Of a stretch of 64,000 bases of DNA, positions 45,363-64,000 are shown one piece after another. Numbering within the stretch: the stretch's first letter is position 1; the number at the start of each line of letters is the position of its first letter. The notes beneath the pieces are model-generated. The model was given only the letters and a program-made list of their open reading frames with translations, was not told the DNA's origin and made no database searches. Position numbers and translations under genes: made by a program. The stretch comes from an uncultured Thermoleophilia bacterium (GTDB taxonomy: Bacteria; Actinomycetota; Thermoleophilia; UBA2241), in NCBI GenBank assembly GCA_963702475.1, contig CAVPCT010000009.1, positions 256,001 to 320,000 of the forward strand, written 5' to 3'.

Positions 45363-46769
45363 ATGGCTGGACCTGGGACGAAAGCCCAGCGAGCGCGCAT
45401 GACGGTCTTCGAAGCGTACGAGAGGGCCCGTAAGGGTCCCAAGTTCGATGAGGCGGTCTGGAACTTCGAGCTCATCCCACAGACCGCCAAGCGGTTGAAG
45501 GAGAAGTACGAGATCGTGATGGACAAGTCCGTCATGGTCCCAACCGATCCCGAGCTCATGACGAAGCTGTACAAGGCCGGCCTTGAGATGCTGGTCGAGT
45601 GCGGCGTGTACGTCATCGACACGAAGCGCATCATCAAGTACACCGAGGAAGAGATCCTCCTCGGCCTCGCGACGGCGCCCAAGACGTGCGTGATCGGCGA
45701 AGGCCTCCACGCGCGCCCCATGGAGTACCGCACCCACAAGGACTCGCGCCCGCCGCTGGTCCAGGGCGGTCCGACCGGCGCTCCCTGCAGTGAGCAATAC
45801 TTCTTCCCGATCCACGAGTCGTACGTCAAGGAAGGCATCGTCGACTGCATCGTGGACGGCGTGCTCTCCACCGTGAACGGCTACAACCCCGCCCCCGACA
45901 CGCCCTGGGAGGTCCTCGCCGGCCGCCAGGAGATCATGATGGTGCGCATGGCGCAGGCCAAGTGCGGCCGCGCGGGCATGGGGTTGTAGGGTCCCGAGAC
46001 CACGCTGAACGCAGCCGCCACGATCTCTCAGGACTTCCCGGGCGGCATGCGTACCTCGGACAACCACGAGGTGTCGCAGCTGAATGAGCTGAAGACCGAC
46101 CTAGGAGCGTTGCTCTTCACCTCTCATTACAGTCTCGCTGCGAACAACATCATGGTTGAGCAGATGCCGATCTTCGGCGGGTTCGCCGGTGGTCTCGAGG
46201 AGACGACCATCGTCAACGTCGCCACGCATATCAACTCGTTCGTGACGTTCGGCGGCACCTGGCACCTCGACGGTCCTGTCCACATGCGGTGGGGCATCAC
46301 GACGACCAGGGAGGCCCTGGCTATCGCGGGTCACGCCATCATGGCGGTCAACTCCGTCTGGCCGATCCTGAGCGGCAACCAGTACTACACCATGGCCGGT
46401 CCCTGCACCGTCATGTGCCTCCTGGAGACGGCTGCACAGGCCATCACCGATACCGCCAGCGGTCGCGAGATCATGTCCGGCGTCGCCGCCGCCAAGGGCG
46501 TCATCACCGACAAGACCACCGGCATGGAAGCCCGCTTCATGGGCGAGTGTGCGCACGCTGTCGCCGGCATGCCGACCGAGCAGACCAACGAGGTCCTCGA
46601 CGCGTTGGTGAAGATGTACGAGGGCGACTACAAGACGGCCGACCAAGGCAAGTTCTTCTACGAGTGCTACGACGTGGAGAAGGTCGTGCCCACGGACGAG
46701 TACCTCGAGGTCTACGACAAGGCTTGCGAAGTGATGAAGGGCCTCGGCGTCAAGCATCCACTCTGGTGA
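45363..46769 (+). CDS. mtmB: Monomethylamine:corrinoid methyltransferase with an in-frame amber (Pyl) codon at 45987-45989 (468 aa)
   Basis: AYERARKGPK, VQGGPTGAP, GRAGMGL-O-GPET; frame continues HEVSQLNELK, AGPCTVMCL, TGMEARFMGE; AGGAGG RBS. Confidence 0.93.
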
Positions 46770-46817
46770 GACGCGCCCGGTCAGTGAACACGCCGAGTCA
46801 GAGGAGGCTCTAGGCAA

Positions 46818-47459
46818 ATGGGAGACGCTGAGTTCATCAATGAAGCGATCGACTCGCTCCTGAACTACGACAAGGACAGGGCCGTCGACGTCGCAAACAA
46901 GGCCATCGCCGCCGGCATGGCACCAGACAAGCTGATGGCCGAGGGATTCGTGATCGGCATCCGCCAGCTGGGCGACAAGTTCGACGAGGGCGAGGTCTAC
47001 CTGCCCGAGCTCATGCTCGCGGCGGCCGCCATGGAAGCTGCCATGGCGATCTGCAACGCCGCGCTGCCTGAGGGCAAGAGCGAGGTACGCGGCAAGGTCG
47101 TCATCGGCACCGTCGAGGGCGACGTGCACGATATCGGCAAGGCCATCGTCTGTGCGTACCTGCGCGCCAACGGCTACGAGGTCTGGGACCTGGGCCGCGA
47201 TGTGCCGGTCGAGGACTTCGTCGACAAGGCCGAGGAGGTCGGCGCCGACATCATCGGCGCCAGCGCCCTGCTCACGGCCACCATGCGCAAGCAGTCGGAG
47301 ATCGTGGCGGAGCTCAAGGACCGCGGTATCCGCGAGAAGTACAAGTTCGTCGTCGGCGGCGCGCCCTGTACGCAGGAGTACGCCGACTCCATCGGCGCCG
47401 ACGCCTACGCGGCCGACGCCAGCGACGGCCTCAAGAAGATCGAGGAGCTCGTCAAGTAA
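46818..47459 (+). CDS. mtmC: Methylamine corrinoid protein (cognate of MtmB)
   Basis: YLPELMLAA, GTVEGDVHDIGK, SALLT, VGGAP. Confidence 0.9.
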   Translation: MGDAEFINEAIDSLLNYDKDRAVDVANKAIAAGMAPDKLMAEGFVIGIRQLGDKFDEGEVYLPELMLAAAAMEAAMAICNAALPEGKSEVRGKVVIGTVEGDVHDIGKAIVCAYLRANGYEVWDLGRDVPVEDFVDKAEEVGADIIGASALLTATMRKQSEIVAELKDRGIREKYKFVVGGAPCTQEYADSIGADAYAADASDGLKKIEELVK

Positions 47460-47497
47460 GAGTTGAGCCGGCGGCAGGCCGGCAGACACACCTGCCT

Positions 47498-47534
47498 GGA
47501 GGGCGGCGCTCGCACCACGCGGGCGCCGCCCTTC
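47498..47534 (+). terminator. GC-rich hairpin after mtmC
   Basis: 16-bp stem (2 GU) GGAGGGCGGCGCTCGC/GCGGGCGCCGCCCTTC. Confidence 0.6.
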
Positions 47535-47663
47535 GCCGTACAGCAGAGATTGTGCTGAGTGTCACGTTCACATAAGGCACCTTGGCGGCCCATCAGTCGC
47601 CTTCACTTGGGGAGGTAGCCGAATGAAGAGCAGATCGCACCTGCACGACGACGGAGCGGCGCC

Positions 47664-48023
47664 ATGAGCACCCCGGACGTCGACTCCATCGTCGAACAAG
47701 CACTCGAAGCGGAAGTGCACGGCGGCAAACACGACCCGCGCATCGACAAGCTCTTCCGCCAGGACGTCATCACCATCTACGTCTTCGTCATCGCCCTGTG
47801 GCTCGTGCTCTGGACGGTGTTCTTCCTCGTCGCCAACCCTGTGATCGACGACGACAAGCTGCGCTGGCTCCTCATCGGACTCGGCGTGTTCGCCTCGATC
47901 TTCAACAGCGTCGGCATGATCTCCAACACCCGCAGGCTCAAGCACGAGGCCGTGCGCTTCTACTCGCAGGACCTGTTCTGGCAGGACGAGAAGAAGCGGC
48001 GCAAGGCCGCAGGGCTGCTGTGA
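47664..48023 (+). CDS. Small 2-TM membrane protein
   Basis: Two hydrophobic helices, high-GC3 codons, RBS. Confidence 0.8.
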   Translation: MSTPDVDSIVEQALEAEVHGGKHDPRIDKLFRQDVITIYVFVIALWLVLWTVFFLVANPVIDDDKLRWLLIGLGVFASIFNSVGMISNTRRLKHEAVRFYSQDLFWQDEKKRRKAAGLL

Positions 48024-48053
48024 GCGGGCCGTGGTTCGGGAAGGAGGCACGGA

Positions 48054-48236
48054 ATGACTGACCTGGACAACCAGCCGCCGCAGGTCCAAGAGGAGGAGTG
48101 GGTGCCGTACAAGGGGTACGTGCCGCCCACGCAGAGCAAGGTGTGGCAGGTCATCGACGTACTGTTCGTGATCATCCTCTGCTACGTCTGCCTGCTCATC
48201 CCGATCCTGCTCACCGGCAAGATGATCGTGGGGTGA
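48054..48236 (+). CDS. Small 1-TM membrane protein
   Basis: AAGGAGG RBS; VIDVLFVIILCYVCLLIPILL. Confidence 0.75.
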   Translation: MTDLDNQPPQVQEEEWVPYKGYVPPTQSKVWQVIDVLFVIILCYVCLLIPILLTGKMIVG

Positions 48237-48239
48237 CCG

Positions 48240-48578
48240 ATGAGCCTACGTTCACTCACCCGCACCGGACGCGGCCGCAGGTCGCGCCGCGCCGCGGTGC
48301 TCCTGACCTTCGTGGTGCTTGCGGCGGTGCTGTTTCTGAGCGTCGCCGGCGGCGCCCTGGCCGCAGACGACACCGCCGTGTTCACCGAGGGCAACCCGAA
48401 CGTGCAGACGGCGGAGGGCCTGGAGGCCCCCGAGCTCGACTACAACTTCGTGTGGTGGACCTTCATCCTCACCTTCGGTCTTCTGATCGTGTACTACCTC
48501 GTGATCCTCCGGATCTCCGAGACTGAGTTCAAGAAGATCGTCGATGCCCACTTCGGGCCCAAGCGCGAAGGGAGGTGA
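48240..48578 (+). CDS. Small membrane protein (signal or TM plus second TM)
   Basis: Basic N-terminus, hydrophobic segment ending ALA, second TM, then RISETEFKKIVDAHFG. Confidence 0.75.
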   Translation: MSLRSLTRTGRGRRSRRAAVLLTFVVLAAVLFLSVAGGALAADDTAVFTEGNPNVQTAEGLEAPELDYNFVWWTFILTFGLLIVYYLVILRISETEFKKIVDAHFGPKREGR

Positions 48579-48585
48579 CGGGGAG

Positions 48586-48774
48586 ATGCAGGCAATCAAC
48601 TACGTCATCTGGGCGATCGCCATAGCCCTGCTCGTCTGGCTCGTCTACGACGCGTTCCGCATCGAGACGACCTACGACGCCGAGCTCCTCGTCAGCTCCG
48701 TCGAAGGCGAGATCGAGAAGGAGATCCTCGACCACGCGCACCCGAGCACGCCGCCGCAGGGGGGTGCTAGCTGA
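48586..48774 (+). CDS. Small 1-TM membrane protein
   Basis: MQAINYVIWAIAIALLVWLVYDAFR...LLVSSVEGE; stop overlaps the permease start. Confidence 0.75.
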   Translation: MQAINYVIWAIAIALLVWLVYDAFRIETTYDAELLVSSVEGEIEKEILDHAHPSTPPQGGAS

Positions 48775-50195
48775 TGGCCGCCCACGAAGTCGCAGCCGTC
48801 GGCGGCGCCGACATCACGCAACCGAAGCGCCTGAGCCTGCTCCGCGTCCTCGGCCCCATGCACGTGTGGGCTCTGGGCGTCGGCATCGTGCTCGTGGGCG
48901 AGTTCATGGGCTGGAACTTCACCGTGGCCAAGGGCGGCGTGTTCGGCGGCCTCGTGGCCTGCTGGTTCTCGGGCATCCTGTACTCCTGCGTCGCCATGAT
49001 CGACTCCGAGGTGAGCTCGACGGTGGCGTCGGCAGGCGGGCAGTACGCCCAGGCCAAGCACATCCTCGGCCCGCTCGCCGCGTTCAACATCGCCCTGTTC
49101 ATCATCTTCGAGTACTGCATGCTGTCGGCCGGCGACGCCCTCGTCATCGGGGCCCTGGTCAACAGCCTCGATCCCGCCCTCAGCCCCACGCCGGTCGTCG
49201 TGCTCACCATCGCCTTCCTGGCGTGGCTGAACTACCGCGGGGTGCACACCACGCTGACGTTCAACTTCATCATCACCGCCATCGCGTTCGTCACGATCCT
49301 GATCCTGATCGCGGGGGCGGAGTTCTGGAACCCGGGCCACATCACCCAGACCGAGGCTCTCTTCGCGCAGCCGCCCGGTGGCCTCGACCCGAAGTTGCCG
49401 TACGGCTGGCTCGGCATCCTGGCGGCGCTTCAGTTCGGCATCTGGTACTACCTCGGCATCGAAGGTACGTGCCAGACGGCCGAGGAGTGCCGCTCCGCGC
49501 CGCGCGCGCTGCCGGTGGGGACCATGTCGGGTCTGATCACCCTGCTGCTGGCAGCCACGCTCACCTGGTACATCTGCACCGCACTGGTGAACTGGATCTC
49601 CCTGGGCGAGTCGGTGTACCCGCTCTACGACGCCGCCGTGAACACCGGCAAGGGCTGGCTGATGGTGATCCTCTGGATAGGGTCGCTGCTCAGCTGTCTG
49701 GCGTCGTCCAACGGGTGCATCAACGACGCCTCGCGGGCCTGGTTCGCCATGGGGCGCGACCAGTTCATCCCCCGCTGGTTCGGCGGCGTCCACCCGAAGT
49801 ACAAGACGCCCTACCGCGCCATCCTGTTCCTGGTGCCGATCATGATCGCCTTCGGCTACACCGGGCTGCTCGACCAGGTCATCACCTTCTCGATCATCTC
49901 CGGCTGCCTGATCTACTTCATCATGCCGCTGAACATGATCAGGTTCCGCCGGCTCTACCCCATGGACTCGATCAAACGAGGGTACGTGTCTCCGTTCCAC
50001 CCGCTACCTTCGTACGTGTTGTTCGCGTTCGTGCTGCTGACGTTCATCGCCATGTACTTCGGCTACTGGCGCAACCTCGTCGCAGCTTTGGTCTTCTACG
50101 GCCTGTGCTCGCTCTGGTTCGTGCTGCACAGGTACAAGTTCGTGGACCGCACCAAGCTCTACACGATGCCGTGGCCGCGGCCCAAGGGCTACTGA
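48774..50195 (+). CDS. APC family permease, probable (mono)methylamine transporter
   Basis: VWALGVGIVLVGEFMGWNF, YLGIEG..QTAEE, HPKYKTPYRA; downstream of mtmBC. Confidence 0.85.
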   Translation: MAAHEVAAVGGADITQPKRLSLLRVLGPMHVWALGVGIVLVGEFMGWNFTVAKGGVFGGLVACWFSGILYSCVAMIDSEVSSTVASAGGQYAQAKHILGPLAAFNIALFIIFEYCMLSAGDALVIGALVNSLDPALSPTPVVVLTIAFLAWLNYRGVHTTLTFNFIITAIAFVTILILIAGAEFWNPGHITQTEALFAQPPGGLDPKLPYGWLGILAALQFGIWYYLGIEGTCQTAEECRSAPRALPVGTMSGLITLLLAATLTWYICTALVNWISLGESVYPLYDAAVNTGKGWLMVILWIGSLLSCLASSNGCINDASRAWFAMGRDQFIPRWFGGVHPKYKTPYRAILFLVPIMIAFGYTGLLDQVITFSIISGCLIYFIMPLNMIRFRRLYPMDSIKRGYVSPFHPLPSYVLFAFVLLTFIAMYFGYWRNLVAALVFYGLCSLWFVLHRYKFVDRTKLYTMPWPRPKGY

Positions 50196-50208
50196 GCGAG
50201 GGGAGGAC

Positions 50209-50655
50209 ATGATGTTCGAGACTCTGCTGGTAGCTACCGACGGGTCCATAGCCGCGGAGAAGGCCGTGACCTGGGCCGTCGACTTCGCCAAACGGCACGA
50301 CTCGAAGCTCGTCGTGCTCAACGTCACACCTGACAAGCGTGTGCGGCTCCAGGACCAGGAGCCCAACGCCCCGCCCGCCGGCGACGTGTCGCCGGCGGAC
50401 GCCGGGGATCTCGTCTCGGACGAGGCCCTGGCCCGGGCCGAGAGGCTGGCCAAGGAAGCGGGCGTGACCTACGTGCTCGAGGAGGTCTACGGCCGCAATA
50501 TCGCCGCCACCATCGCCAAGGAGGCGCTCAACGTCGGCGCCGACCACATCATCATCGGCTCCACCGGGGTGACCGCGCTGGCCACCTGCGTCCTCGGCTC
50601 GGTCGCGCAGAACGTGGTGCACTACGCGCACTGTCCCGTGACGGTGGTCAGGTAA
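50209..50655 (+). CDS. Universal stress protein
   Basis: LLVATDGS, IIIGSTG, LGSVAQNVVHYAHCPVTVV. Confidence 0.9.
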   Translation: MMFETLLVATDGSIAAEKAVTWAVDFAKRHDSKLVVLNVTPDKRVRLQDQEPNAPPAGDVSPADAGDLVSDEALARAERLAKEAGVTYVLEEVYGRNIAATIAKEALNVGADHIIIGSTGVTALATCVLGSVAQNVVHYAHCPVTVVR

Positions 50656-50701
50656 TGCGACGCCGAGGCCGCAGCCACGGCGCGGGGGAGGTGAGGACCA
50701 C

Positions 50702-51370
50702 ATGGACGTCACCCTCATCATCAAGATAGCCGTCATCGTGGCTGCGGCCCTCGGCCTCGGTTACCTGTACGTCACGTACGTCTATCGCGACCGCCACCGG
50801 ACGCAGCACATGCTCGACGGCTTCCTGCCAATCCTGGAAGGGCCGACGGTAGGGAGAAGTTCCTGGGGCTACGAGCGCCTCGAGGGCGTCCTGGATGGAG
50901 ACCGGGTCAAGATCGACCTGCTCCCGGACTCGCTCATCACGCGGACCCTTCCCACGCTCTGGCTCGAGGTGTGCCTGTGCCGTCCTTTCGACGCGTTCCT
51001 GTGTGTGATCACATTGTGCAACGGCATGGAGTACTTCGCCGACGAGGTCGACGAGGGCACGCTCCTCAACACGCCGAGCACCTGGCCCGAAGGCGTGAGG
51101 GTGCGAGGCAAGAGCTTCGGCAGCGTGGGGCTCCTGCGGCGCGTCGCGGACGTCGACATCGGGGCCTACCCGCACCTCAAGCTGCTGGTCTTCAGCGAGA
51201 CCGGACTCAAGGTGGTCATGCGTGCCGCCCGCGGGGACGTCTCCCAATACAGGGTCATGCGGTCGGCAACCTTCGCTGAAGACTCAGTCAAACCCGAACT
51301 CGTCGACGAGACGGTCCGGCTCGTGCGCCACCTCGAGCGCGTGCTGGTACGTGGAGAGGAGATAGCGTGA
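50702..51370 (+). CDS. Hypothetical protein with an N-terminal TM anchor
   Basis: GAGG RBS, N-terminal hydrophobic helix, stop overlaps the next start. Confidence 0.75.
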   Translation: MDVTLIIKIAVIVAAALGLGYLYVTYVYRDRHRTQHMLDGFLPILEGPTVGRSSWGYERLEGVLDGDRVKIDLLPDSLITRTLPTLWLEVCLCRPFDAFLCVITLCNGMEYFADEVDEGTLLNTPSTWPEGVRVRGKSFGSVGLLRRVADVDIGAYPHLKLLVFSETGLKVVMRAARGDVSQYRVMRSATFAEDSVKPELVDETVRLVRHLERVLVRGEEIA

Positions 51371-51831
51371 GCAAGGTGCGCCGGGCCCGGCGGCCCCAGA
51401 AGCCGGCCCCCAAAGGCGAACTCAAGAAGCCGCGTCCGGTGTGGTTCGTCACGCTGCTGGCGTTCGTCCTGCCCGGGAGCGGCCAGTGGCTGAACGGCGC
51501 CCCCATCAGAGGCATGGTCATGCAGTTCAGCATGGTGCTGGGCGCGTACCTCACGTACCAGCTCACCACGCCCGAGATCTCGCCGGTCGGCCGCCTTGCC
51601 GGAGGCCTGCTGGTATGGGTCTTCTCGATCGTGGACGCCCATGGGATCGCCACCCGCAGGGTGAAGGCGTGGGCGCGCATAGAGGCGTCGCAGGCCGCCT
51701 CGCCGAACCCACCGCAGGCGAAGAAGGCCGGCGGCGCGAGCGACGGCAAGCCGTCCGGAGGCGCCCCGCGACGCATGCAGCCGAAAGGCGCCTCCCGGCG
51801 GCCGGCGACCTCGGGGAGTCACGACACCTGA
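51367..51831 (+). CDS. Hypothetical 3-TM membrane protein
   Basis: LAFVLPGSGQWLNG...RG motif and hydrophobic segments. Confidence 0.75.
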   Translation: MSKVRRARRPQKPAPKGELKKPRPVWFVTLLAFVLPGSGQWLNGAPIRGMVMQFSMVLGAYLTYQLTTPEISPVGRLAGGLLVWVFSIVDAHGIATRRVKAWARIEASQAASPNPPQAKKAGGASDGKPSGGAPRRMQPKGASRRPATSGSHDT

Positions 51832-52003
51832 GCGGTGCCGAAGGCCCGCAGGTGCAGAGCGGCCCGGGCGACGCCCGGGCCGCTCTGCGTACGCGGCCCT
51901 CACACCGCGCGCCACGTGGGACCAGGTGTGGGAGGCGCCCACCTGCGGAAGAACCGACCCACCGGCGGCAGCGGCCGCCGGCCGCAACTGACCGGGGGTG
52001 CCC

Positions 52004-52213
52004 ATGAGCATCACGCTCTACACGCGACCCGACTGTCGCTACTGTGACGCGGCGCGCCGCTACTTGGACGAGCGCGGCGATGCCTATGAAGAGCGGGACA
52101 TCAGCGCCGACGTCGAGGCCGAACGGGAGGTCATCGCCATCACCGGCGGACCCCTGAGCGTGCCGATCACGGTCGAGGACGGCGACGTCAGGGTCGGCTT
52201 TCCGTATCAATGA
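52004..52213 (+). CDS. Glutaredoxin/NrdH-like protein
   Basis: LYTRPDCRYC, SVP, VGF. Confidence 0.8.
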   Translation: MSITLYTRPDCRYCDAARRYLDERGDAYEERDISADVEAEREVIAITGGPLSVPITVEDGDVRVGFPYQ

Positions 52214-52317
52214 GGAGGGGCGCGAGGGCGTACGCGCTGGATCTTCCAGCACGACCCCGAGCGCCGGCGCGCGTGACGCGCCTGGACCCGCCACACCTGA
52301 GCTGACCGGGCGAGCCC

Positions 52318-52442
52318 TGCTCCATTATGGAGCACGTTCTTGATTGACTTGTCCAATCTGGTATTCTGTGCCCGGATTGCAGTCTTTTCGCATGCCCCAG
52401 AGCCCCGAAAGCCTTGACGGACACTCCGAGGCTACATACATT
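52318..52442 (+). promoter_or_regulatory. Palindromic operator and two candidate promoters upstream of mtbB
   Basis: TGCTCCAT-T-ATGGAGCA 52318-52334; TTGATT-16-TATTCT with extended TG; TTGACG-17-TACATT 52414-52442. Confidence 0.55.
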
Positions 52443-52730
52443 GTGTCGCACACGCGAGGCCGGCTGTGCCCAAACGGCATACGCCTTGTACTGAAGCTAT
52501 ACTTCGTGGCCTCACGAGGTGACCAGCTATCGACTCCGAACGCTCGACGCGGTACCCCCGCGAACGGCAAAGGGAGGCCCGTCCTGTGTCGACGGACCAT
52601 GCGATGCGATCCACCGAGCGTGCCGCGTCACCAGGGGGCTCGTTGCCTTGGATGACCGACGACGCCCCACGCCCACCGCCCGTGCGCGGTCTGTCTCCGC
52701 GCTCTCTCACCACAATGGAGGTGTGACGCA

Positions 52731-54131: not shown

Positions 54132-54191
54132 TGCGGGAGTCAGCGACTCTCTCGCAGGTTCAGCGAACTCTGACCCACGGAGGTCACGGGA

Positions 54192-54839: not shown

Positions 54840-54862
54840 CCGCACGTTGTTAGGGCGGGATC

Positions 54863-54899
54863 CCGGCGGCGCGGTGGAGCTACTCCGCCGCGCCGCCGG
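54863..54899. terminator. Hairpin between convergent genes
   Basis: 17-bp stem CCGGCGGCGCGGTGGAG/CTCCGCCGCGCCGCCGG. Confidence 0.65.
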
Positions 54900-54904
54900 C
54901 GCCC

Positions 54905-55786: not shown

Positions 55787-55900
55787 CGGCTCTCCCCGGG
55801 ACGTTCGCTGACATGCCGGCCACACGCCGGCGACGGACAGCGTACCCGCGCCGGTCGCGCAAGGCCAGCGAGGCACCCGGCTGCGGGCGAGCCACGGCCG

Positions 55901-55946
55901 GGCCCATGCAAGGGTATTGACTCCTCGGGTAGACGCAAGGTACCTT
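55901..55946 (+). promoter_or_regulatory. Degenerate 7-2-7 site abutting the SSS transporter promoter
   Basis: GGCCCAT-GC-AAGGGTA 55901-55916 then TTGACT-18-TACCTT; same GGGTATTG junction as at mtmB. Confidence 0.5.
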
Positions 55947-56197
55947 GCCTCATCCTTCGGCCCGCCGCGCCCCATCGGGGGAGCGCCGGCGCGACCGACA
56001 GAGGTGTATCCCTGGTCCTGCGTGCACGGCATCCGGGGGGATCGCCGTCGCACTGGGGAGGTGGTGCCGCAACCTGAGCCGCCGGACGACCACCGGTCTC
56101 GCGCCCGGTGCCGGCCCGTTTCATGCCGGCACGTCACCGGGCCAAAGCCATGGTCCCGGGATCTCTCACACAACGTCAACGAGCAGAGGGGGGAGCA

Positions 56198-57817
56198 ATG
56201 ATAGTGGCAGCCGCGATCAGTCCAGTCTGGTACTGGGTCATCGTGCTCGGCTACATGCTCGTGCTGATCGGGATCGGCGCCTGGACGTACCGCTACCAGA
56301 AGCAGCAGAAGTCCGCGACCGACGAGCACGACGACTACTGGATCGCCAAGCGCCGCAACAACGCCCTCGTGGTGGGCTGCGCCATCGCTGCAGGCTGGTT
56401 CCTGATGGGCTTCATCACCTGGGCCATGTACAACACCTACATGTACGGCATCGGCGGCATCTGGGCCATGGTCGTACCGTGGACGGTGCTGCTGTTCTGC
56501 ATGGTGATCCTCGTGCCGTGGGTACGGCGCATGAAGGCCATCTCGCAGCCGCAGATGCTCCAGCAGCGCTTCGGACTGGCTCTGCGCGTGCTCGTGAGCC
56601 CGTTCAACATGTTCTGCTTCATCATCTGGGCCGCGGCGGAGATCTGGACGGTCTCGCTGTACATGGCGTCGGCATTCGGCGTCCAACCCTGGGTCCTCTA
56701 CATCGTCTTCGCCGTGCCCTGCGCCCTCTACATGGCCCTGGGCGGCTTCCACGCCGTCATCAGCGCCAACCTGCTGCAGTTCGCCATGGGCGTCACCTTC
56801 GTCACCATCATCTTCTTCGTGATGGTCTTTGAGGCGTGGGACGCCCTGCCCAGTGGCCAGAGCATGATCGACTACCTCGGGAGCGTCGTACCGGCGGGCA
56901 ACTCGGAAGGCGACAGTGCGCTCACGCTCTTCAGCCTGGGCATACCGTTCGCCATCTTCTCGCTCATCGCACTCCTGCCGGGGTGGGTGATCGAGGAGGA
57001 CTGGTGGCTCAAGGCGCAGTCGGCCAAGAGCACGCGTGCCGCACGGCAGGGCATCTGGGCCAACCTGAGCTACAACCTCATCTGGATCCTCGGCCTGCCG
57101 AGCCTCATCGGCCTCTTCGCCCTCGTGCTTTATCCGCCGGAAGTGCTCGACACCAAGCTGGCCGGGAACGCCTACGAGCTCATGCCGGTGTTCCTGGGTG
57201 ACTACTTCCCGCCTTGGCTGCAGATGATCGTGTTCTGCCTCATGGCTGCACACGCCGTAGCCACGGTGGCTACGTTCACCAACGTGTCGGCCCTCAACAT
57301 CAGCTACGACGTCCTGCAGCCGCTCGTATACCGCAAGCGCGGGTGGGGTGACGCCAGGATCGTGCTGGCCAGCCGCATCGCGTCGCTGTTGGTCGTCATC
57401 GCCACCCTGGGCGTGACGTTCCTCATCGACATGCTGCCGCAGGGCCTGTGGGACGCGTACTACCTGTCCAGCGGTGTGCTCTCTGCTGCCGTCGGCGTCT
57501 CCGTACTCTCCATCTTCTGGAAGCGCGCCAACTTCGCCGGTGCTTTCGCTGCGTCGCTCGTCGGTGGCGTCACCACACTCGTGCTGTTCATCGTGGAGAA
57601 GTACGTCTGGGAGTACGACTGGCCGATCCCGATCCCGGATTCCATGGTCGCTACCGGCTACGCCTACGCGGTGGTCGGCGTGATCCTCGCCATCATCACC
57701 CTGGTCGTGGTCACGCTGCTGACGCCCAAGCCGCCGCAGATCAACCTCGACTCCATCTCGGCGCAACCCGTTGACGATCACGCCGAGTTCTTCGCCGGCG
57801 TGCGTGAGACGTACTGA
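56198..57817 (+). CDS. Sodium:solute symporter family transporter
   Basis: DYWIAKR, QMLQQRFG, YMALGGFHAVISANLLQF, FWKRANFAGA; about 13 TM. Confidence 0.88.
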   Translation: MIVAAAISPVWYWVIVLGYMLVLIGIGAWTYRYQKQQKSATDEHDDYWIAKRRNNALVVGCAIAAGWFLMGFITWAMYNTYMYGIGGIWAMVVPWTVLLFCMVILVPWVRRMKAISQPQMLQQRFGLALRVLVSPFNMFCFIIWAAAEIWTVSLYMASAFGVQPWVLYIVFAVPCALYMALGGFHAVISANLLQFAMGVTFVTIIFFVMVFEAWDALPSGQSMIDYLGSVVPAGNSEGDSALTLFSLGIPFAIFSLIALLPGWVIEEDWWLKAQSAKSTRAARQGIWANLSYNLIWILGLPSLIGLFALVLYPPEVLDTKLAGNAYELMPVFLGDYFPPWLQMIVFCLMAAHAVATVATFTNVSALNISYDVLQPLVYRKRGWGDARIVLASRIASLLVVIATLGVTFLIDMLPQGLWDAYYLSSGVLSAAVGVSVLSIFWKRANFAGAFAASLVGGVTTLVLFIVEKYVWEYDWPIPIPDSMVATGYAYAVVGVILAIITLVVVTLLTPKPPQINLDSISAQPVDDHAEFFAGVRETY

Positions 57818-57861: not shown

Positions 57862-58317
57862 ATGGCATACACAATCGTGGTGGGGTACGACGGGTCCGAG
57901 CCGGCCAAGAAGGCGCTGGCCGCGGCCATCGAGTTCGCCAAGACCACACCCGACGCCGAGATCGTGGTCGTCTGCGGCCAGGACCGCAGGCCGGGGTACT
58001 TCTACTATGACGACCAGCCACTGTGGAAAGAGGCCATCAAGCTCGACCAGATGTGGGAGCACATGGAGGCCAAGATCGAGGAGGACCTCCAGGAAGCGGT
58101 GAAGGTCGTCCAGGACGCAGACGTGAAGGCGACCGCTGCCTGCGGTCGCGGACGGCCGTCTTCGATCGTGCTGAACGTGGCGCGAGAGACCGGCGCCCGC
58201 CTCATCGTCGTGGGCACACACGGCTCCGGCAAGGACGAGGAGACCACGGTGATGGGCTCCACGACGACGGAGCTGCTTCACCAGACGCACGTGCCAGTGC
58301 TGGTCGTGCCTCACTGA
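57862..58317 (+). CDS. Universal stress protein
   Basis: IVVGYDGS, LIVVGTHG, MGSTTTELLHQTHVPVLVV. Confidence 0.9.
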   Translation: MAYTIVVGYDGSEPAKKALAAAIEFAKTTPDAEIVVVCGQDRRPGYFYYDDQPLWKEAIKLDQMWEHMEAKIEEDLQEAVKVVQDADVKATAACGRGRPSSIVLNVARETGARLIVVGTHGSGKDEETTVMGSTTTELLHQTHVPVLVVPH

Positions 58318-58512
58318 CCACCGTGCGCGCCTGACGCGCACGGAGTGCCCGGCCGCCGGCGAGTCTCTGGCTCGCCGGCGGCCGGTAGTACGGCCCGGCC
58401 CGGGCCGTGGAACATACGGGGAGAGTCGCGACCGGCGGCCGTCCGGGGGCTCGTTCGTCTGAGCCCGGAGGTCCACCGGTCGTGTCCCCTCTTAACATCC
58501 TTGGGGGAGTCG

Positions 58513-59367
58513 GTGACCTTCGACGAATTCGCACTCATGCTCACAGCTGGGCCCAGGGCCAAGCTGCGGGCGGAAGTCTCCCTGGAGGACCGCGAGCGCA
58601 TCCTGCGCTCCCTCATGGGCCGCCTTCCCGTCATGGTCTACCGCTGCGCCGACGACGCCCAGTGGACCATGGAGTTCGTGAGCGCCGGAGCAGAGGAGAT
58701 CACCGGCTACAAGCCGGAGGAGCTCGTTGGCAACGCCCGGCTGGCGTACACCGACCTGGTGGTGCCGTGGCACTACGAGGGCGTCTGCCGCGACATCCAG
58801 CACGCCATCGAGAAGCACAACGCGTGGACGACGTCCTACCCCATCATCACCGCGTCAGGCGACCGCAAGTGGGTGTGGGAGCGCGGTGTGGCCGTGCTCG
58901 ACGACGCCGGGGAGGTGATAGCGCTTGCAGGGATCATCATCGACATGACCGTGGAGCGCGAGGCCGAGGAGTCACTCGAGCTCGCGCTCGCCGAGTGGCG
59001 CCAGGTGTTCGACGCCATGGACGACGCCGTGATGGTCCTGGACGGCGACGGCGAGGTGCTGCGAGCCAACGCGGCGGCAGCGGCTCTCAGCGGACTCGAT
59101 CAGGCCGAGATGGCCGGGCTCAAGTGCTCGGACGCGCTGCAGGAGCTCTGCGGCCAGGCCCAGGGCATGTGTCCTCGCGACAGGGTGCTGCTGTCGGGGC
59201 GGACGGAGATGACCTACGTGGAGCACGAAGGCAGGCTGCTTCGCCTGACGTTCAAGCCGACCCCGGTCATGGACGGACGCGTCAACGGCGGCTTGTACGT
59301 CGTGAGCGACGTCACGGACGCCGTCCGGGCACGGCCGCAGGACGCACCGGGTACGTCCTACGTGTGA
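58513..59367 (+). CDS. Tandem PAS-domain protein without an output domain (start approximate)
   Basis: MVYRCADDAQWTMEFVS..EITGY; EWRQVFDAMDDAVMVLD..LRANAAA. Confidence 0.8.
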   Translation: MTFDEFALMLTAGPRAKLRAEVSLEDRERILRSLMGRLPVMVYRCADDAQWTMEFVSAGAEEITGYKPEELVGNARLAYTDLVVPWHYEGVCRDIQHAIEKHNAWTTSYPIITASGDRKWVWERGVAVLDDAGEVIALAGIIIDMTVEREAEESLELALAEWRQVFDAMDDAVMVLDGDGEVLRANAAAAALSGLDQAEMAGLKCSDALQELCGQAQGMCPRDRVLLSGRTEMTYVEHEGRLLRLTFKPTPVMDGRVNGGLYVVSDVTDAVRARPQDAPGTSYV

Positions 59368-59406
59368 GACGCGGCGGGCGCCGCCCGCCGCGCGTCTGCA
59401 CCGGCG

Positions 59407-59748
59407 TCAGGATGCTGAGCGTCTGAGGAGGTCGGCCGCACTCGCGAAGAGCCATTCGGTGCGGGTGCGACACGTGACTATCGTGGCCAGGTCGAGCTCG
59501 CCCGGCAGCTCTTCGTCGACGAACGCGGCCGCAAGGTCCTTGACGCGGATCGGCTCCTGGCCGCCCCTCTCCATCTCGGCCAGTTCCATCATCACGGCCA
59601 CGCCCTTGCCGTCCCACTCATTGGGGACCACTGCGCACGAGAAGACGAAGGGGTGACCGTCGAGCTCGTATTCCTGGATCTCCCGCCGGCGCGCCAAAGA
59701 GACGGGATCGGTTGCCGGGTCCCCGCTGCGAACCAGCCACTCGCTCAT
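59407..59748 (-). CDS. Hypothetical protein (113 aa)
   Basis: GGGAGGA RBS, high-GC3 codons. Confidence 0.65.
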   Translation of the reverse strand: MSEWLVRSGDPATDPVSLARRREIQEYELDGHPFVFSCAVVPNEWDGKGVAVMMELAEMERGGQEPIRVKDLAAAFVDEELPGELDLATIVTCRTRTEWLFASAADLLRRSAS

Positions 59749-59963
59749 CGTGTCCTCCCGCTCGTTCGCTCGGCGCATCGCCCGCCTCGAGTGCCAGTGT
59801 GGAAGTGCGAGAGCGGAATCTTGTGCCGTTCTGGCGAATTCAGTGCCCTGTGGGGCCTTATGCGGTAGAGTACTGCGCAACAGGGTGCGGGAAGCGGCAA
59901 AACAGATGTTCACTGTGTCCATCTATAAGCTACGCACTAGGCCATAACAAACAACATTGAGCC

Positions 59964-59993
59964 TTGATGCAGGGGTCGCGTATCTCCTATAGT
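59964..59993 (+). promoter_or_regulatory. Candidate mttB promoter
   Basis: TTGATG-18-TATAGT preceded by an AT-rich stretch. Confidence 0.5.
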
Positions 59994-60261
59994 CGCGCTC
60001 ACCACCGTCCATAACGGCGACACATCGAGAAGGCTCTGTGTACTGTCTGGGTGCACGGCCTTTCTCATCGCACGTTGTCACACTCCGGGCTTCGGCCCAC
60101 GCGTCGACCATGACGGGCCACGTTCCCACCGTCGACTGGATCGTGGCGCGAACCGCGCTCAAGGGAGGAGGCGGGATGACGAGATGAGGGCGAGCCCACG
60201 AGGCCCTGCGGCCGGGTTCGCCCAGAACCGCTATCTGCAAAGTGCGTAAGAAGGAGGCGGA

Positions 60262-61737
60262 ATGATTCGAAGTCAAAGGTCAGGCATCAACCACCAGGGC
60301 GGCATCGGCATCGATGTCTTCAGCGAGGATGAGAGGCAGGCCATCCACTGGGGCACCGTCGAGGTGCTCGAGACGGCCGGCATCTGGGTGGAGGACGACG
60401 AGGCCCTCGACCTGTTCGCCGACGGCGGCTGCAAGGTCGACCGCTCGACGCGCAAGGTGCGGATCCCGCAGCACGTGCTCGAGGAGTGCATCAGTTGGGC
60501 GCCCTCCACGGTCACCCTCTGCGGCCGCGACCCCGCCAAGGACCTCGTCATGGAGGGCCGGCGGGTCGCGTTCACCAACTTCGCCGAGGGAGTGAAGGCC
60601 GTCGACCTGTACGACGGCAAGCTTCGCCCGACCACCAAGAAGGACGTCGGCGACCTCGCCCGTCTCGTCGACGCGCTCTCCGACATCGAGGTCTACACGA
60701 TCGCGGTGACGGCCACCGACGTGCCCCCGGAGGTCGCCGAGGCGCACCTCATCGAGCAGTCGTTGCTGAACACGACGAAGCCCATCTGCAGCCTGGCCCT
60801 CGCCCATCACGGCGCCCGCCTCCACATCGACGCCGCGGCCGCCGTGGTCGGCGGCCACGACAAGCTGGCCGACCGGCCGATGCTGCTCTTCCTCAGCTGC
60901 CCGGTCAGCCCGCTCAAGCTCATGGGCGAGTTCAGCGGGTGCATCATCGAGGCGGCCCGCGCCCATCAGGTCGCGATGCCGCTATCGATGGCCATGTCAG
61001 GCGGCTCCGCCCCGGTCACCCTGGCCGGCACCATGGTCACGCACAACGCCGAGGTGCTCGCCGGCATCGTCCTGGCGCAGCTCGCCGAGAAGGGCGCCAA
61101 GTGCGTCTACGGCACCTCCACCACCGCCTTCGACCTGCAGCGCGCGGCCGCGACCGTGGGCACCCCGGAGCTCGGCCTCATCAGCGCGGCCGTGGCCGAG
61201 ATGGGCCGCTACTATGGCCTGCCGACCTACGGCGCCGGGTTGTAGAGCGATTCCAAGCTCGGCGGCGACGCCCAGGTCGCGCACGAGAAGACCGTCACCG
61301 GCCTCCTGCCAGCGTTGGGAGGGCTCAACCTGATCTATGGAGCCGGGATGATCGAGTCGGGCGTCACCATCGACTACGGCACGCTCGTCATGGACAACGA
61401 CATCGCCCGTATCTGCAAGTACGTCCTGCGTGGCATCCCCACGAACGACGCGACGCTGATGGTTGATGAGATCATCGAGGTGGGGTCCGAGGAGGACTTC
61501 CTCTCGAGGATGAGCACCCTGAAGCTGATGCGTGAACACCAGTCCAAGGCCGGCAACATCGACCGCCGCGTGCGCGAGGAGTGGGAGATGGACGGCGGCA
61601 AGGACATGTACAGCCGCTGCAACGAGATGGCCAAGGAGCTCGTCGAGAGCCACACGGTTCCCGAGCTGCCGAGCGACGTCAAGGACCAGATCAGGGCCAT
61701 CGTCGTCAAGGCCGAGAAGGACGCTGGAGTCGCCTGA
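60262..61737 (+). CDS. mttB: Trimethylamine:corrinoid methyltransferase with an in-frame amber (Pyl) codon at 61243-61245 (491 aa)
   Basis: NTTKP, CPVSPL, SMAMSGGSAPVTLAGT..THNAEVL, GTPELG, YGAGL-O-SDSK...HEKT, NLIYGAGM. Confidence 0.93.
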
Positions 61738-61786
61738 GAGCTCAGCGCTCCGCAACGAACGCACGACGTGGAGGACATAGGATCCT

Positions 61787-62413
61787 ATGGCAGACTTTGA
61801 CTCTCTCAAGCAGATGATCGTCGACGGCAACGACGCCGCCACGGCCGCCACCCAGGCGCTCGTGGACGGCGGCGCCTCCGCCCGCGATATCCTCGACAGC
61901 GCCCTGCTTCCCGGCATGGACATCGTCGGCGCGCAGATGAAGAGCGGCGACAAGTTCATCCCCGAGGTGCTGCTCAGCGCCCGCACCATGCAGGGCTGCC
62001 TCGACATCATCAAGCCGCTTCTTGGTGAGGGCGGCGGCTCCCTCGGCACGGTCGTCATCGCCACCGTCGAGGGCGACATGCACGACATCGGCAAGAACCT
62101 CGTCGCCATGCTGCTCAGCGGCGCCGGCTTCGAGGTCGTCAACCTCGGCAAGGGCATCACCTGCGCCGACATGGTCGCCGCCTGCAAAGAGCACGACGCC
62201 GACATCCTCGGCATGAGCGGCCTGCTGACCACCACCATCCCCAAGATGCCCGAGACCATCCAGGCCCTCAAGGACGCCGGCCTGCGCGACAAGGTCAAGG
62301 TCATCGTCGGCGGCGCCCCGGTCAGTGCCGAGTGGGCCGCCGAGGTGGGCGCCGACGCCTACGGTGCCAACGCGTCCCTCGGCGTCGAGAAGTGCAAGGA
62401 GCTCATGGGCTGA
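61787..62413 (+). CDS. mttC: Corrinoid protein (cognate of MttB)
   Basis: FIPEVLLSA, TVEGDMHDIGKNLV, SGLLTTT, VGGAPV. Confidence 0.9.
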   Translation: MADFDSLKQMIVDGNDAATAATQALVDGGASARDILDSALLPGMDIVGAQMKSGDKFIPEVLLSARTMQGCLDIIKPLLGEGGGSLGTVVIATVEGDMHDIGKNLVAMLLSGAGFEVVNLGKGITCADMVAACKEHDADILGMSGLLTTTIPKMPETIQALKDAGLRDKVKVIVGGAPVSAEWAAEVGADAYGANASLGVEKCKELMG

Positions 62414-62462
62414 GTCCCAGCCCGTGAGGGCGGCCTCGCCGCCCTGGATGAGCTGCGTGACG

Positions 62463-62506
62463 GGGAGCGCCCCCGCCGCCTACCCGGCGGCGGGGGCGCT
62501 CCCTTG
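62463..62506 (+). terminator. Terminator-like hairpin after mttC
   Basis: Perfect 18-bp stem GGGAGCGCCCCCGCCGCC-TACCC-GGCGGCGGGGGCGCTCCC then TTG. Confidence 0.7.
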
Positions 62507-62538
62507 TCGTCCGCCTCCCCCGAAGCCACGAAACCCTG

Positions 62539-62566
62539 TTGACGCGCGCCGAGACCGACGTATGGT
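62539..62566 (+). promoter_or_regulatory. Candidate promoter of the last permease
   Basis: TTGACG-16-TATGGT. Confidence 0.5.
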
Positions 62567-62759
62567 TCGTTGTACAAAGGGCAGGGGCCCACGCCGGGCC
62601 ATGGACACAAGGAGGATGCGACAGCCGAAGCAGACAAGGGACCCGGCCCCGCACGGTCTCGGCGACATGTCAAGGGCCCGGATGGGCACCGACGCCCTCA
62701 GCGCCACCAAGGGCCAGGCGCCAGAGTGAACGTCAGGCAGCGTACGCACGGGGGAGAGC

Positions 62760-64000
62760 ATGGCACAGAACGACTACCTTGAAGGGTACTCAGAGGAGTA
62801 CAAGGCATCCCGGATGAACACGAACATGCGCCGCGACCTGAGCTGGGTCGGCGCTTTCTTCGTCGCCGCCGGAGTGCCCGCGCTGGTCCTCTTCCAGATG
62901 GGCGGCGTCTCCGGCATGACCGGGGCGGTTGCAGCGCTCGTCTGGACGATCTCGGTCCTCATCGGCTTCGTCGACGCGTTCACCTACGCGGAGATCGCCG
63001 GGCTGCACCCCAAGAAGTCAGGCGGCACGGCCGTCCACGGCGCCACCGCCTGGATCCGCTACATCCGCCCGACGGCGGCCATCTCGCTGTGGTGCAACTG
63101 GCTGGCGTGGACACCGGTGCTCGCCATCGGCGCCGGCCTCGGGGCCTCGTATCTTCTGTCCATCTTCTACGCACCCGACTCCACGATCATGACGTGGCAG
63201 TGGACCATTGCCGACCTGGGCTTCCTCAAGGACGGCCTCACGCTGCGTATCAACGCCGTGTTCATCGTCGGCGCCGTCATCATCCTGGCCGTCTGGAACA
63301 TCCAGCACTACGGCATCCTGCGCACCGCGCGCGTACAGACGATCCTCACCATCGGCGCCGTCACGCCGCTGCTGGTGCTCTCGATCGTGCCGCTGGTCAC
63401 CGGCGACGTCGTGATGAGCAACTTCTCGCCCTTCACGCCCGTCAACGGCGCCTGGGACATCACCGGCTGGGAGTTCTTCCTCGGGGCCCTCTTCATCTGC
63501 GCCTGGACGACCTACGCCTTCGAGACCGCCGTCTGCTACATGAGTGAGTTCAAGAACCCGGCGAAGGACATGTCGAAGGCGATCATCATCTCCGGCCTGT
63601 TCTGCATCCTGTGCTTCACGCTCATCCCGTTCGTGTTCCAGGGTGTGCTCGGCACCGAGTACATGCTGCAGGCCGACGTGATCTCCGGTGCGGCGGTGCC
63701 CCAGGCCTGGGCCGACGTCGTGAGCGCCGGCAGCTTCCTGACCAACGTCATCATCGTGCTCCTGTTCTTCACGGTGGTCGTCGCGATCATGACGGCCATG
63801 TCCGGCTCGTCGCGCACGCTGTTCCAAGGCGGGCAGGACGGCTGGCTGCCCAAGTACCTGTCGCACCTGAACAACCACAAGGTGCCCACGTACGCCATGT
63901 GGACCGACCTCGGCGTCAACCTCGTGCTGCTGCTCATGTCGGACTACCTGTTCGTGCTGGCGGTGTCCAACTGCAACTACATGATCTTCAACTTCCTGAA
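62760..64000 (+). CDS. APC family permease, probable methylamine transporter (MtbP-like); runs off the window end
   Basis: Absent from the ORF track (no stop); read by hand: MAQND..RDLSWVGAFFVAAGVPALVLF, YAEIAGLHPKKSGG, WCNWLAWTPVL, YAFETAVCYMSEF. Confidence 0.85.
   Translation, partial: MAQNDYLEGYSEEYKASRMNTNMRRDLSWVGAFFVAAGVPALVLFQMGGVSGMTGAVAALVWTISVLIGFVDAFTYAEIAGLHPKKSGGTAVHGATAWIRYIRPTAAISLWCNWLAWTPVLAIGAGLGASYLLSIFYAPDSTIMTWQWTIADLGFLKDGLTLRINAVFIVGAVIILAVWNIQHYGILRTARVQTILTIGAVTPLLVLSIVPLVTGDVVMSNFSPFTPVNGAWDITGWEFFLGALFICAWTTYAFETAVCYMSEFKNPAKDMSKAIIISGLFCILCFTLIPFVFQGVLGTEYMLQADVISGAAVPQAWADVVSAGSFLTNVIIVLLFFTVVVAIMTAMSGSSRTLFQGGQDGWLPKYLSHLNNHKVPTYAMWTDLGVNLVLLLMSDYLFVLAVSNCNYMIFNFL

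Follow-up and report, generated by a model that had tools for sequence, protein, structure and literature searches.

Can an actinobacterium read UAG as pyrrolysine (Pyl) and use it to strip trimethylamine (TMA) of all three methyl groups? The question is raised by a 64,000-nucleotide (nt) stretch of DNA (the window), which corresponds to positions 256001–320000 of contig C9 in G000, a 4.31-Mb genome bin in nine contigs with a completeness of 93.8% and a contamination of 6.5%. Positions given below are window coordinates unless a contig (C3, C9 and so on) is named. An earlier account of the window made from its sequence alone (the sequence-only reading) had proposed that a single in-frame TAG is present in each of three methylamine methyltransferase genes (mtmB, mtbB and mttB) and that the host, an apparent actinobacterium, uses Pyl to demethylate TMA fully to ammonia. 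These genes lie in an island of about 26.5 kb (C9:296469–323011) located between recX and rny, which extends about 3 kb beyond the end of the window. It is very likely that the span singled out by that reading (45363–64000) is the core of this island, that the host is a Pyl-decoding, anaerobic actinobacterium (about 70% GC) and that the system works by the mechanism proposed below.

Three methyltransferase genes with one UAG each

Under translation table 11, each of the three B genes is called as two open reading frames (ORFs): 45315–45989 and 46047–46769 for mtmB, 52731–53792 and 53817–54131 for mtbB, and 60262–61245 and 61315–61737 for mttB. Standard annotation thus yields six fragments, as had been foreseen. 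When TAG is read through, the pairs merge into single frames (45315–46769, 52731–54131 and 60262–61737) of 484, 466 and 491 amino acids (aa), with exactly one odd codon in each. The read-through product of mtmB (monomethylamine:corrinoid methyltransferase; 45363–46769, plus strand) matches PF05369 with 661 bits over profile positions 1–449 of 450 and the solved MtmB1 (1tv2/1nth) with 534 bits; among NCBIfam models, none matched this protein. The product of mtbB (dimethylamine:corrinoid methyltransferase; 52731–54131, plus strand) scores 656 bits against PF09505 and 544.4 bits against the TIGR02368 equivalog (cut-off 369.1). The product of mttB (trimethylamine:corrinoid methyltransferase; 60262–61737, plus strand) scores 300 bits against PF06253 and 619.2 bits against the Pyl-type equivalog TIGR02369, whose cut-off of 525 separates Pyl-type MttB from non-Pyl members of the MttB superfamily. 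The same protein scores 374 bits against the solved MttB 7xcm and 199 bits against the glycine betaine enzyme 2qne/9yce. The frames and family matches confirm that each B gene has one in-frame TAG and an intact 3′ half, and the amber codons had been numbered correctly.

The TAGs of mtmB and mttB were compared with Pyl residues of solved structures, and that of mtbB with the column shared among paralogues. The TAG of mtmB (45987–45989, plus strand; codon 209 when the ATG at 45363 is taken as codon 1) aligns with residue 202 (Pyl202) of chain 1tv2_A, and that of mttB (61243–61245, plus strand; codon 328) aligns with residue 334 of the solved chain 7xcm_A. The TAG of mtbB (53790–53792, plus strand; codon 354) falls at one column, in the context D-G-[LF]-*-[VA]-G, in all 10 copies of the gene in G000; in Methanosarcina, the Pyl of MtbB is at about residue 356. 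Across the genus, TAG is present in 10 of 10 Pyl-type mtmB loci, and the TAG column is identical in alignments of G000 with two congeneric genomes, G064 and G020. Two Rfam models find conserved context from these codons onward: PYLIS_2 (53790–53889; 78.1 bits, gathering score 36) begins exactly at the mtbB TAG and PYLIS_3 (52.8 bits, gathering score 38) exactly at the mttB TAG.

The ratio of non-synonymous to synonymous substitution rates (dN/dS) was determined 5′ and 3′ of each TAG between G000 and the congeners G064 and G020 in four comparisons. For mtmB, the ratio is 0.14–0.18 before the TAG and 0.11–0.12 after it; for mtbB, 0.20 and 0.17; and for mttB, 0.13 and 0.28. Overall, dN/dS is 0.11–0.28 after the TAG as against 0.13–0.20 before it, and the pattern holds in all four comparisons. 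Because the ratio after the TAG is low, as it is before, the 3′ halves are kept as in-frame coding sequence and are under purifying selection. In RNA-library run X15, a 1705-nt contig with 121 differences (93% alike) maps on 53067–54772 and spans the mtbB TAG into mtbC, and run X16 has contigs on mtmB that show one difference each. Coverage in run X15 includes mtmBC and is lacking in several bins, among them the kinase and regulator region and the SSF gene described below; it was not used as evidence for transcription or for silence. Selection after the TAG and the RNA-library contig across the mtbB TAG are indirect signs that Pyl may be incorporated at UAG.

Pyrrolysine machinery and the probable dual meaning of UAG

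Decoding UAG as Pyl would call for pyl genes in the same genome, and all six components are found on contig C3 of G000. The genes pylB (C3:637885–638913; 438.1 bits, cut-off 348.2), pylC (C3:638955–640109; 323.8 bits, cut-off 248.3) and pylD (C3:640193–640975; 209.1 bits, cut-off 150.05) are contiguous at C3:637885–640975. They are followed by pylT (C3:641046–641118), called by ARAGORN as tRNA-Pyl(cta) with the anticodon CUA and located between pylD and pylSn (C3:642228–642485; TIGR03912, 126 bits, cut-off 51.15). The sixth gene, pylSc (C3:657647–658372, minus strand), matches TIGR02367 with 314.6 bits (cut-off 178.15), so that the five protein genes all exceed curated cut-offs. The tRNA folds as a cloverleaf (−34.8 kcal/mol) in which the D-loop has 5 nt, a single base separates the acceptor stem from the D stem, and the anticodon stem is long; these features are presumably traits of tRNA-Pyl. 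Against solved enzymes, PylSc scores 312 bits with the split bacterial type (3dsq/2zni) and 231 and 187 bits with archaeal forms.

The order of the pyl locus (C3:637885–658501) is unusual: pylB-pylC-pylD-pylT are followed by an opposite-strand gene similar to Germane/Gmad2 lipoproteins, then by pylSn and a corrinoid protein gene. The minus-strand gene pylSc is located about 15 kb beyond pylSn; it is followed by a gene for a CwlD/SleB-like amidase and converges with a Pyl-type mtbB that has a PYLIS_2 match of its own. ARAGORN found no tRNA in 19 kb around pylSc; pylT was found 16 kb away by a whole-genome scan. Minus-strand ORFs downstream of pylSc were considered as candidates for pylBCD and rejected: 9 of the 10 ORFs lack a relevant family or encode a CwlD/SleB-like amidase. 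Genes of the homocitrate synthase-like, aconitase and isocitrate/isopropylmalate dehydrogenase families lie upstream of pylBCD (C3:628830–633676), and a gene for saccharopine dehydrogenase is found on the downstream side of pylSn (C3:645979–647253). Pyrrolysine synthesis uses up two lysines, and these flanking genes may provide lysine by an aminoadipate-type route beside Pyl synthesis. A tRNA-Sec (anticodon TCA) is encoded at C3:167171–167268; together with the pyl set, it makes it probable that the organism employs the 21st amino acid as well as the 22nd.

UAG also serves as a stop codon in this genome. RF1 is present (477 bits, cut-off 423), and TAG ends 321 of 2243 crudely called ORFs (about 14%), with no excess of nearby back-up stops. 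Because RF1 is present and TAG ends these ORFs, UAG is regarded as a codon with dual meaning and not as a reassigned one. The same observations, together with five other mttB/mtbB copies of the genome that are broken by frameshifts, could be taken to mean that the three B genes are decaying pseudogenes or truly split genes in which TAG is only a stop and the 3′ halves go untranslated, but this is barely credible for genes that have a single stop each, always TAG and always at the catalytic Pyl column, in which the TAG is kept throughout the Pyl-type mtmB loci of the genus and the sequence after it is under purifying selection, in a genome with the full pyl set.

Insertion site and single-organism origin

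On contig C9, the island is surrounded by housekeeping genes: carB, nusA, infB, truB, ribF, pnp, dapB, dapA, rnj, ftsK, pgsA, cinA, recA and recX lie upstream, and rny, miaB, miaA, dapF and hflX lie downstream. The left flank is formed by recX (39773–40468, plus strand; RecX_HTH1/2/3 domains), and the island begins directly after its stop. In two congeners that lack a Pyl-type mtmB (G007 and G059), recA-recX-rny-miaB-LigB-miaA are contiguous and recX is about 340 bp from rny, whereas 22–27 kb separates the two genes in G000, G020 and G064. The latter two are independent congeneric assemblies, in which the contigs that carry the island at the recX/rny site are 810 kb and 1.25 Mb long. Gene content is rearranged between the genomes: the G020 island has two mtmBC pairs (G020:C14:682146–691795), each MtmB being about 92% identical to that of the window, and an inverted mttBC, and the G064 island lacks the left three genes. 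Island proteins are 47–95% identical across genomes, the B proteins and their corrinoid partners 82–94%, and the flanking RecA and RNase Y 88–94%. At the island flanks, no direct repeat of at least 9 nt was found, and no integrase or tRNA was seen at the ends. In run X1, no single Logan contig spans the recX/island junction (two overlap by 14 nt), which adds nothing to the synteny.

A leader of about 300 nt upstream of rny (C9:323011–323406) is conserved across congeners, including G007 and G059. Its elements are a TTGACT...TACTAT pair that resembles a promoter, a CCTGACCCCTGGACG block and, right before the start codon, a GC-rich hairpin with TTTTT after it; the leader is a possible attenuator for RNase Y.

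These data bear on whether a binning or assembly artefact has brought in the island or the pyl locus from some other organism (a Firmicute or deltaproteobacterium, for instance), the actinobacterium itself being without Pyl use. The pyl genes (C3) and the island (C9) are on separate contigs of a bin with 6.5% contamination, which counts in favor of such an artefact, as do the spore-related domains (CwlD/SleB-like and Germane) that adjoin pylSc and pylT. Conversely, the island is joined to housekeeping genes on both sides, the junctions are identical in G020 and G064, and C3 has Pyl-type mtbB and mttB copies of its own. Composition is also uniform. The GC content at third codon positions (GC3) of island genes is 0.86–0.95, like that of housekeeping genes; GC is 69.5–70.9% in all contigs; and tetranucleotide correlations, at least 0.97 throughout, are 0.97–0.98 when the island is compared with each of the contigs, and the value of the pyl region is 0.99. 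PylSc is moreover encoded in 72 of 79 sampled members of the family. A mixed origin is thus most improbable, and the specific worry that the island is chimeric with the housekeeping part is answered in the negative by the shared site, GC3 and tetranucleotide composition.

Identity of the host

In a FastTree phylogeny of PNPase (81 rows, with the named loci among the matches listed), the G000 protein falls within a starred Actinomycetota set (98*); the best identity to a named record, among the matches listed, is 62%. A second PNPase tree included five added genomes of the same class, of which two rows represented the wrong ORF and were disregarded. In this tree, G000 belongs to a 99* clade with three same-class genomes and metagenome-assembled genomes (MAGs) titled Solirubrobacterales or Actinomycetes, these titles being the submitters' own. 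A MAG titled Coriobacteriia is placed outside this clade, and the same-class genome G028 nests with the Solirubrobacterales-titled MAGs. The trees support an assignment of the host to Actinomycetota, so the description as an apparent actinobacterium holds at the phylum level. A Thermoleophilia-like class is only probable, because the titles are the submitters' own and two members of the clade are titled Actinomycetes.

WhiB, which we take to be an actinobacterial hallmark, does not agree readily with this assignment. No WhiB (PF02467) was found in six of six class genomes (G000, G007, G193, G028, G025 and G029, the five besides G000 being 99–100% complete), and the Corynebacterium control was positive. 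Because WhiB is also missing from all five classmates, it neither helps nor cleanly contradicts the placement. Its absence, the modest PNPase identity and the use of one marker for the trees could suggest that the host is a high-GC member of another phylum. This is very unlikely in view of the position of PNPase in both trees and of the gene order from nusA to recX and from miaB to hflX given above, which matches what we take to be the mycobacterial order.

Gene content of the island

Each B gene is followed by a gene for a two-domain corrinoid protein (B12-binding and B12-binding_2), as had been claimed: an mtmC type at 46818–47459 (plus strand; TIGR02370, 227.6 bits, above the cut-off of 215.3), an mtbC type at 54192–54839 (plus strand) and an mttC type at 61787–62413 (plus strand). 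Paralogues of mttC that are 90–94% identical adjoin other Pyl-type mttB copies in the genome.

The three transporters expected in the span are likewise present. The first is an APC permease similar to ethanolamine permeases (48774–50195, plus strand; PF00324, PF13520; TIGR00908 with 207 bits, below the cut-off of 382), which by its context is a candidate methylamine importer. The second is a transporter of the sodium:solute symporter family (SSF; 56108–57817, plus strand; PF00474, 71 bits), a homologue of which is 74% identical and inverted in the G064 island. The third is an APC permease that matches the trimethylamine N-oxide (TMAO) permease equivalog NF053774; it begins at 62760 (plus strand), is cut by the window end at 64000 and continues to 64370, and scores 580 bits when cut and 753 bits at full length (cut-off 690). 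Beyond it, the right end of the island consists of a universal stress protein (Usp) gene and then one for a QueG/RDH-like Fe-S protein. A fourth transporter had been placed just upstream of the span and corresponds to the first gene of the island, a weakly matching APC permease-like ORF of uncertain start (40499 to about 42100, minus strand; PF13520, 40.6 bits), with a 77% identical homologue at the same place in G020.

Putative regulators are encoded between this ORF and mtmB and again upstream of mttB. A LuxR/NarL-type response regulator (42115–42750, minus strand; Response_reg and GerE; 87% in the G020 island) is followed by a GAF-containing histidine kinase that is divergent to mtmB (42776–44926, minus strand; HisKA_3/HATPase_c; 74% in G020). 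The kinase is a candidate sensor for the island. A sensor protein with PAS domains (58345–59367, plus strand; PAS_4, PAS_9, PAS_3; TIGR00229) lies farther downstream. Given their position, this kinase/LuxR pair next to mtmB and the PAS protein may control the island.

Of the remaining genes, two encode Usp (50209–50655, plus strand, PF00582, 103 bits; and 57862–58317, plus strand, PF00582, 83 bits). A small ORF of 119 aa that is probably a membrane protein (47664–48023, plus strand; GC3 0.92) has only sub-threshold Pfam matches and is 82–94% identical in the G064 and G020 islands; for a second one of 112 aa (48240–48578, plus strand; GC3 0.88; 47–61% in the same islands) no family was found. 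Two conserved hypothetical proteins fall into unnamed clusters of the Protein Atlas: one of 222 aa (50702–51370, plus strand; 57–63% in G064/G020) without a Pfam or NCBIfam match, and one of 154 aa (51367–51831, plus strand; 63–64%) for which no family was found. Three gaps of 0.9–1.3 kb contain no GC3-supported ORF: 51831–52731 upstream of mtbB, 54839–56108 upstream of the SSF gene, and 59367–60262 upstream of mttB. Rfam at E ≤ 1 found no family in them; they may hold promoters or leaders.

A proposed route from trimethylamine to ammonium

The following mechanism is proposed for the island. Methylamines would be imported by the permeases of the island (two of the APC type, the TMAO-permease equivalog and the SSF transporter), their substrates being assigned by context. 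MttB would take the first methyl group of TMA, MtbB the second and MtmB the last, leaving ammonium. Each B enzyme would carry in its active site a pyrrolysine from the single in-frame UAG and would methylate its own Co(I) corrinoid protein (MttC, MtbC or MtmC). The PylBCD enzymes encoded on C3 would make pyrrolysine, and the split, bacterial-type PylSn/PylSc would charge tRNA-Pyl(CUA), so that Pyl insertion competes with termination at UAG. The methyl groups would probably pass to tetrahydrofolate (THF), the presumed acceptor, by methyltransferases encoded elsewhere, and RamA-type activators would hold the corrinoids reduced. Methyl-THF would then enter the Wood-Ljungdahl pathway and be converted to acetyl-CoA or oxidized to CO2.

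The sequence-only reading had called the island complete. This is true of the methyltransferase (MtxB) and corrinoid protein (MtxC) components but not of MtxA and RamA, for which candidates are found elsewhere in the genome. RamA/RACo is encoded at three loci, and there are three pterin-binding genes; AcsB has as neighbors a RACo gene and one of these pterin-binding genes, which is AcsE-like; and the URO-D family has 11 matches, several of them within a few kb of corrinoid genes by their coordinates. That the methyl groups go to THF and on into the Wood-Ljungdahl pathway is proposed because these RamA/RACo, AcsB, pterin-binding and URO-D genes are present. The use of Pyl to demethylate TMA fully to ammonia, as first proposed, is supported by the presence of all pyl components and by an island that is not chimeric.

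The same enzymes could serve another physiology, such as nitrogen scavenging or oxidation of the methyl groups with an external acceptor or in syntrophy, or TMAO and not TMA could be the compound imported. The third permease passes the cut-off of the TMAO-permease equivalog, the part of the island within the window showed no gene for a methyl acceptor, and the three Usp proteins and the PAS/GAF sensors suggest use gated by stress or by signals. The AcsB gene with RACo and an AcsE-like pterin-binding gene speaks for the route of a methylotrophic acetogen instead. These alternatives are a real but rather doubtful possibility.

A methyl-transferring, Pyl-decoding island in an actinobacterium also has to be weighed against several points that count against it, beside the missing WhiB and the two separate contigs. 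In the window part of the island, no methylcorrinoid:THF/coenzyme M methyltransferase (MtxA) or RamA was found. MtbC (212.3 bits) just misses the TIGR02370 cut-off of 215.3, and MttC (169.2 bits) misses it as well. PYLIS_1, taken from the mtmB TAG, reaches 47.8 bits, under its gathering score of 70, and the PYLIS models largely mirror conserved coding sequence, so that their matches amount to conserved context and no proof of a functional element. The RNA-library contigs may contain DNA and, being 90–99% alike, partly derive from relatives; they are a hint of expression only. Read-through of ordinary TAG-ended genes would be a cost that the proposed mechanism leaves unexplained.

Distribution and paralogue expansion

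Of 401 genomes sampled from the class, 81 have a PylSc that exceeds the cut-off. In the family of G000, 72 of the 79 genomes, across 10 genera, have the protein, including 43 of 48 congeners. A second family (f4) accounts for 9 of 61, and in the other families sampled (79, 76, 28, 24 and 44 genomes, and small ones) there was none. Pyl-type mtmB (one TAG, >585 bits) is rarer and occurs in 9 of 54 genomes of the genus. Because it is rarer than PylSc, the full route from TMA to ammonium is regarded as a subset trait in a lineage in which Pyl is the rule.

In G000, the methyltransferases have expanded. The MttB superfamily has 56 matches at E ≤ 1e-60, about 30 MttB-family genes are located on contig C4, and there are about 26 corrinoid-protein loci in the genome; C4:2384–234872 and C5:331708–372531 are examples of the expansion. 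Fifteen MttB proteins lie above the Pyl-type cut-off, 13 with TAG and 2 with Leu (CTC) at the column, and seven MtbB copies lie above theirs, all with TAG. The intact Pyl-codon genes thus number 21 (13 MttB, 7 MtbB and 1 MtmB). A further five Pyl-type mttB/mtbB copies are split by a frameshift, an internal TGA or a contig end, including those at C5:362183–365021, C5:931603–933068, C7:37206–38568 and C4:73–1439; they may be pseudogenes or reflect homopolymer errors of long reads. Pyl-type MttB/MtbB paralogues are 44–59% identical to the island copies. Pyl-type MttB counts are 2, 7, 7, 7 and 2 in five further genomes, of which four belong to the family and one (G141) to f4.

Some paralogues have no stop at the Pyl column. 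The two MttB genes with Leu (CTC), which contain no stop codon, are at C4:42548–43945 (plus strand) and C4:59964–61364 (minus strand), with 636 and 611 bits, and a similar stop-free copy in G064 scores 652 bits. From their sequences, they look like recent Pyl-to-Leu replacements or neofunctionalized copies. In four full-length, stop-free MtmB paralogues (C5:571067–572416, C4:65316–66659, C9:248475–249818 and C2:42577–43938; 221–308 bits), the Pyl column is occupied by V or N or falls in a gap; non-Pyl MtmB homologues are found in most of the 54 congeners.

Parts of the stretch 45300–55000 are present in 20 public runs from nine studies, and at least half of the sampled words occur in three runs (sediment and wastewater metagenomes), the best-matching of which may be the source sample of the window. 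Near-identical DNA is found in sediment, wastewater and freshwater-sediment runs.

A tentative reading of this distribution, less likely than not, is that the family forms a large clade with apparently vertical inheritance of Pyl decoding (72 of 79 genomes, 10 genera), with what may be the largest bacterial pyrroproteomes known (21 intact genes in G000, as against eight in the record of 2007), paralogues that may have diversified to methylated amines beyond TMA and DMA, and tolerance of heavy UAG ambiguity in spite of RF1 and about 14% TAG stops.

Novelty and implications

The sequence-only reading had raised novelty for the lineage, and in this it went too far. Of 81 bacterial genomes with PylRS, most are reported to be Firmicutes, with 14 from Deltaproteobacteria, two from Actinobacteria and a single spirochaete (PMC9630628; repeated in PMC11764691), and in a thawing permafrost mire, some Actinobacteriota MAGs express Pyl-encoding mttB and mtbB (PMC10805028). 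Because Pyl in Actinobacteria is already in print, the claim at the phylum level is not new. These MAGs and the two PylRS-bearing Actinobacteria share the phylum and Pyl-type methylamine methyltransferases with G000; neither report (PMC10805028; PMC9630628), in its accessible text, covers mtmB, the pyl locus, an island with its insertion site, or paralogue expansion. Literature searches on pyrrolysine in this phylum turned up no account of its mtmB, of a pyl locus, of an island or of paralogue expansion, although supplements could hold such detail. A recX/rny island with all three B/C pairs, family-wide Pyl and the size of the pyrroproteome were likewise not found in print by these searches.

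If the tentative reading above is true, the lineage would be a natural bacterial model for the management of a codon with two meanings. Its high GC content, its RF1, the hundreds of TAG stops and the more than 20 Pyl genes would offer the Pyl field a natural case of two-way reading of UAG. The lineage could also provide divergent PylRS/tRNA-Pyl pairs of bacterial type. Methylamines are counted among the 'non-competitive' substrates of methanogens. A widespread, species-rich bacterial lineage that takes TMA to ammonium would divert methyl groups from methane; if the tentative reading is true, it would be an important and so far overlooked rival, in its use of methylamines, to the methylotrophic methanogens of sediments, wetlands and wastewater. 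Because gene callers split at least 21 genes of G000 in two, the metabolism of this lineage is systematically under-read.

Comparison with known systems

A close parallel to the island itself is in Methanosarcina barkeri, whose MtmB/C, MtbB/C and MttB/C (solved structures 1nth/1tv2 for MtmB and 7xcl–7xcn for MttB) also comprise three non-homologous B families with one UAG each, at the same column in MtmB and MttB and presumably in MtbB, and a cognate corrinoid gene after each. Unlike M. barkeri, G000 is a bacterium, its PylRS is split (PylSn and PylSc) and not fused, and its methyl acceptor would be THF with the Wood-Ljungdahl pathway, not coenzyme M and methane. In addition, all three systems of G000 are in one island with four transporters.

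In Acetohalobium arabaticum, Pyl use is said to depend on TMA, the code being expanded according to the carbon source. Both organisms keep UAG as a stop codon while having Pyl in methylamine methyltransferases, which in G000 is predicted. An island gated by sensors would fit the A. arabaticum model, the regulation of G000 being proposed from gene context. The pyl genes of G000 are on a different contig (C3) from the island, although a Pyl-type mtbB lies beside pylSc there.

The machinery itself resembles the pyl cassette of Desulfitobacterium hafniense, which also comprises split PylSc/PylSn, pylBCD and pylT. The structures 2zni/3dsq, to which PylSc of G000 is closest, are presumably of D. hafniense PylSc, and the gene order of that cassette is, as we take it, pylT-Sc-B-C-D-Sn. 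In G000, the order is instead pylB-C-D-T, the opposite-strand Germane/Gmad2 gene and pylSn, with pylSc about 15 kb on. D. hafniense is described, in the available text of the source, as having a single Pyl-containing MttB homologue (PMC1976440), compared with the 21 Pyl-codon genes of G000. The delta1 symbiont of Olavius algarvensis, like G000, is a bacterium that combines Sec with Pyl machinery and has numerous Pyl-type mtbB/mttB paralogues, and its eight Pyl proteins (six MtbB, two MttB and no MtmB) were called the most in bacteria in 2007, as far as the available text of that source goes (PMC1976440). Against those eight, G000, which belongs to another phylum, has 13 MttB, 7 MtbB and 1 MtmB intact, in addition to the five split copies.

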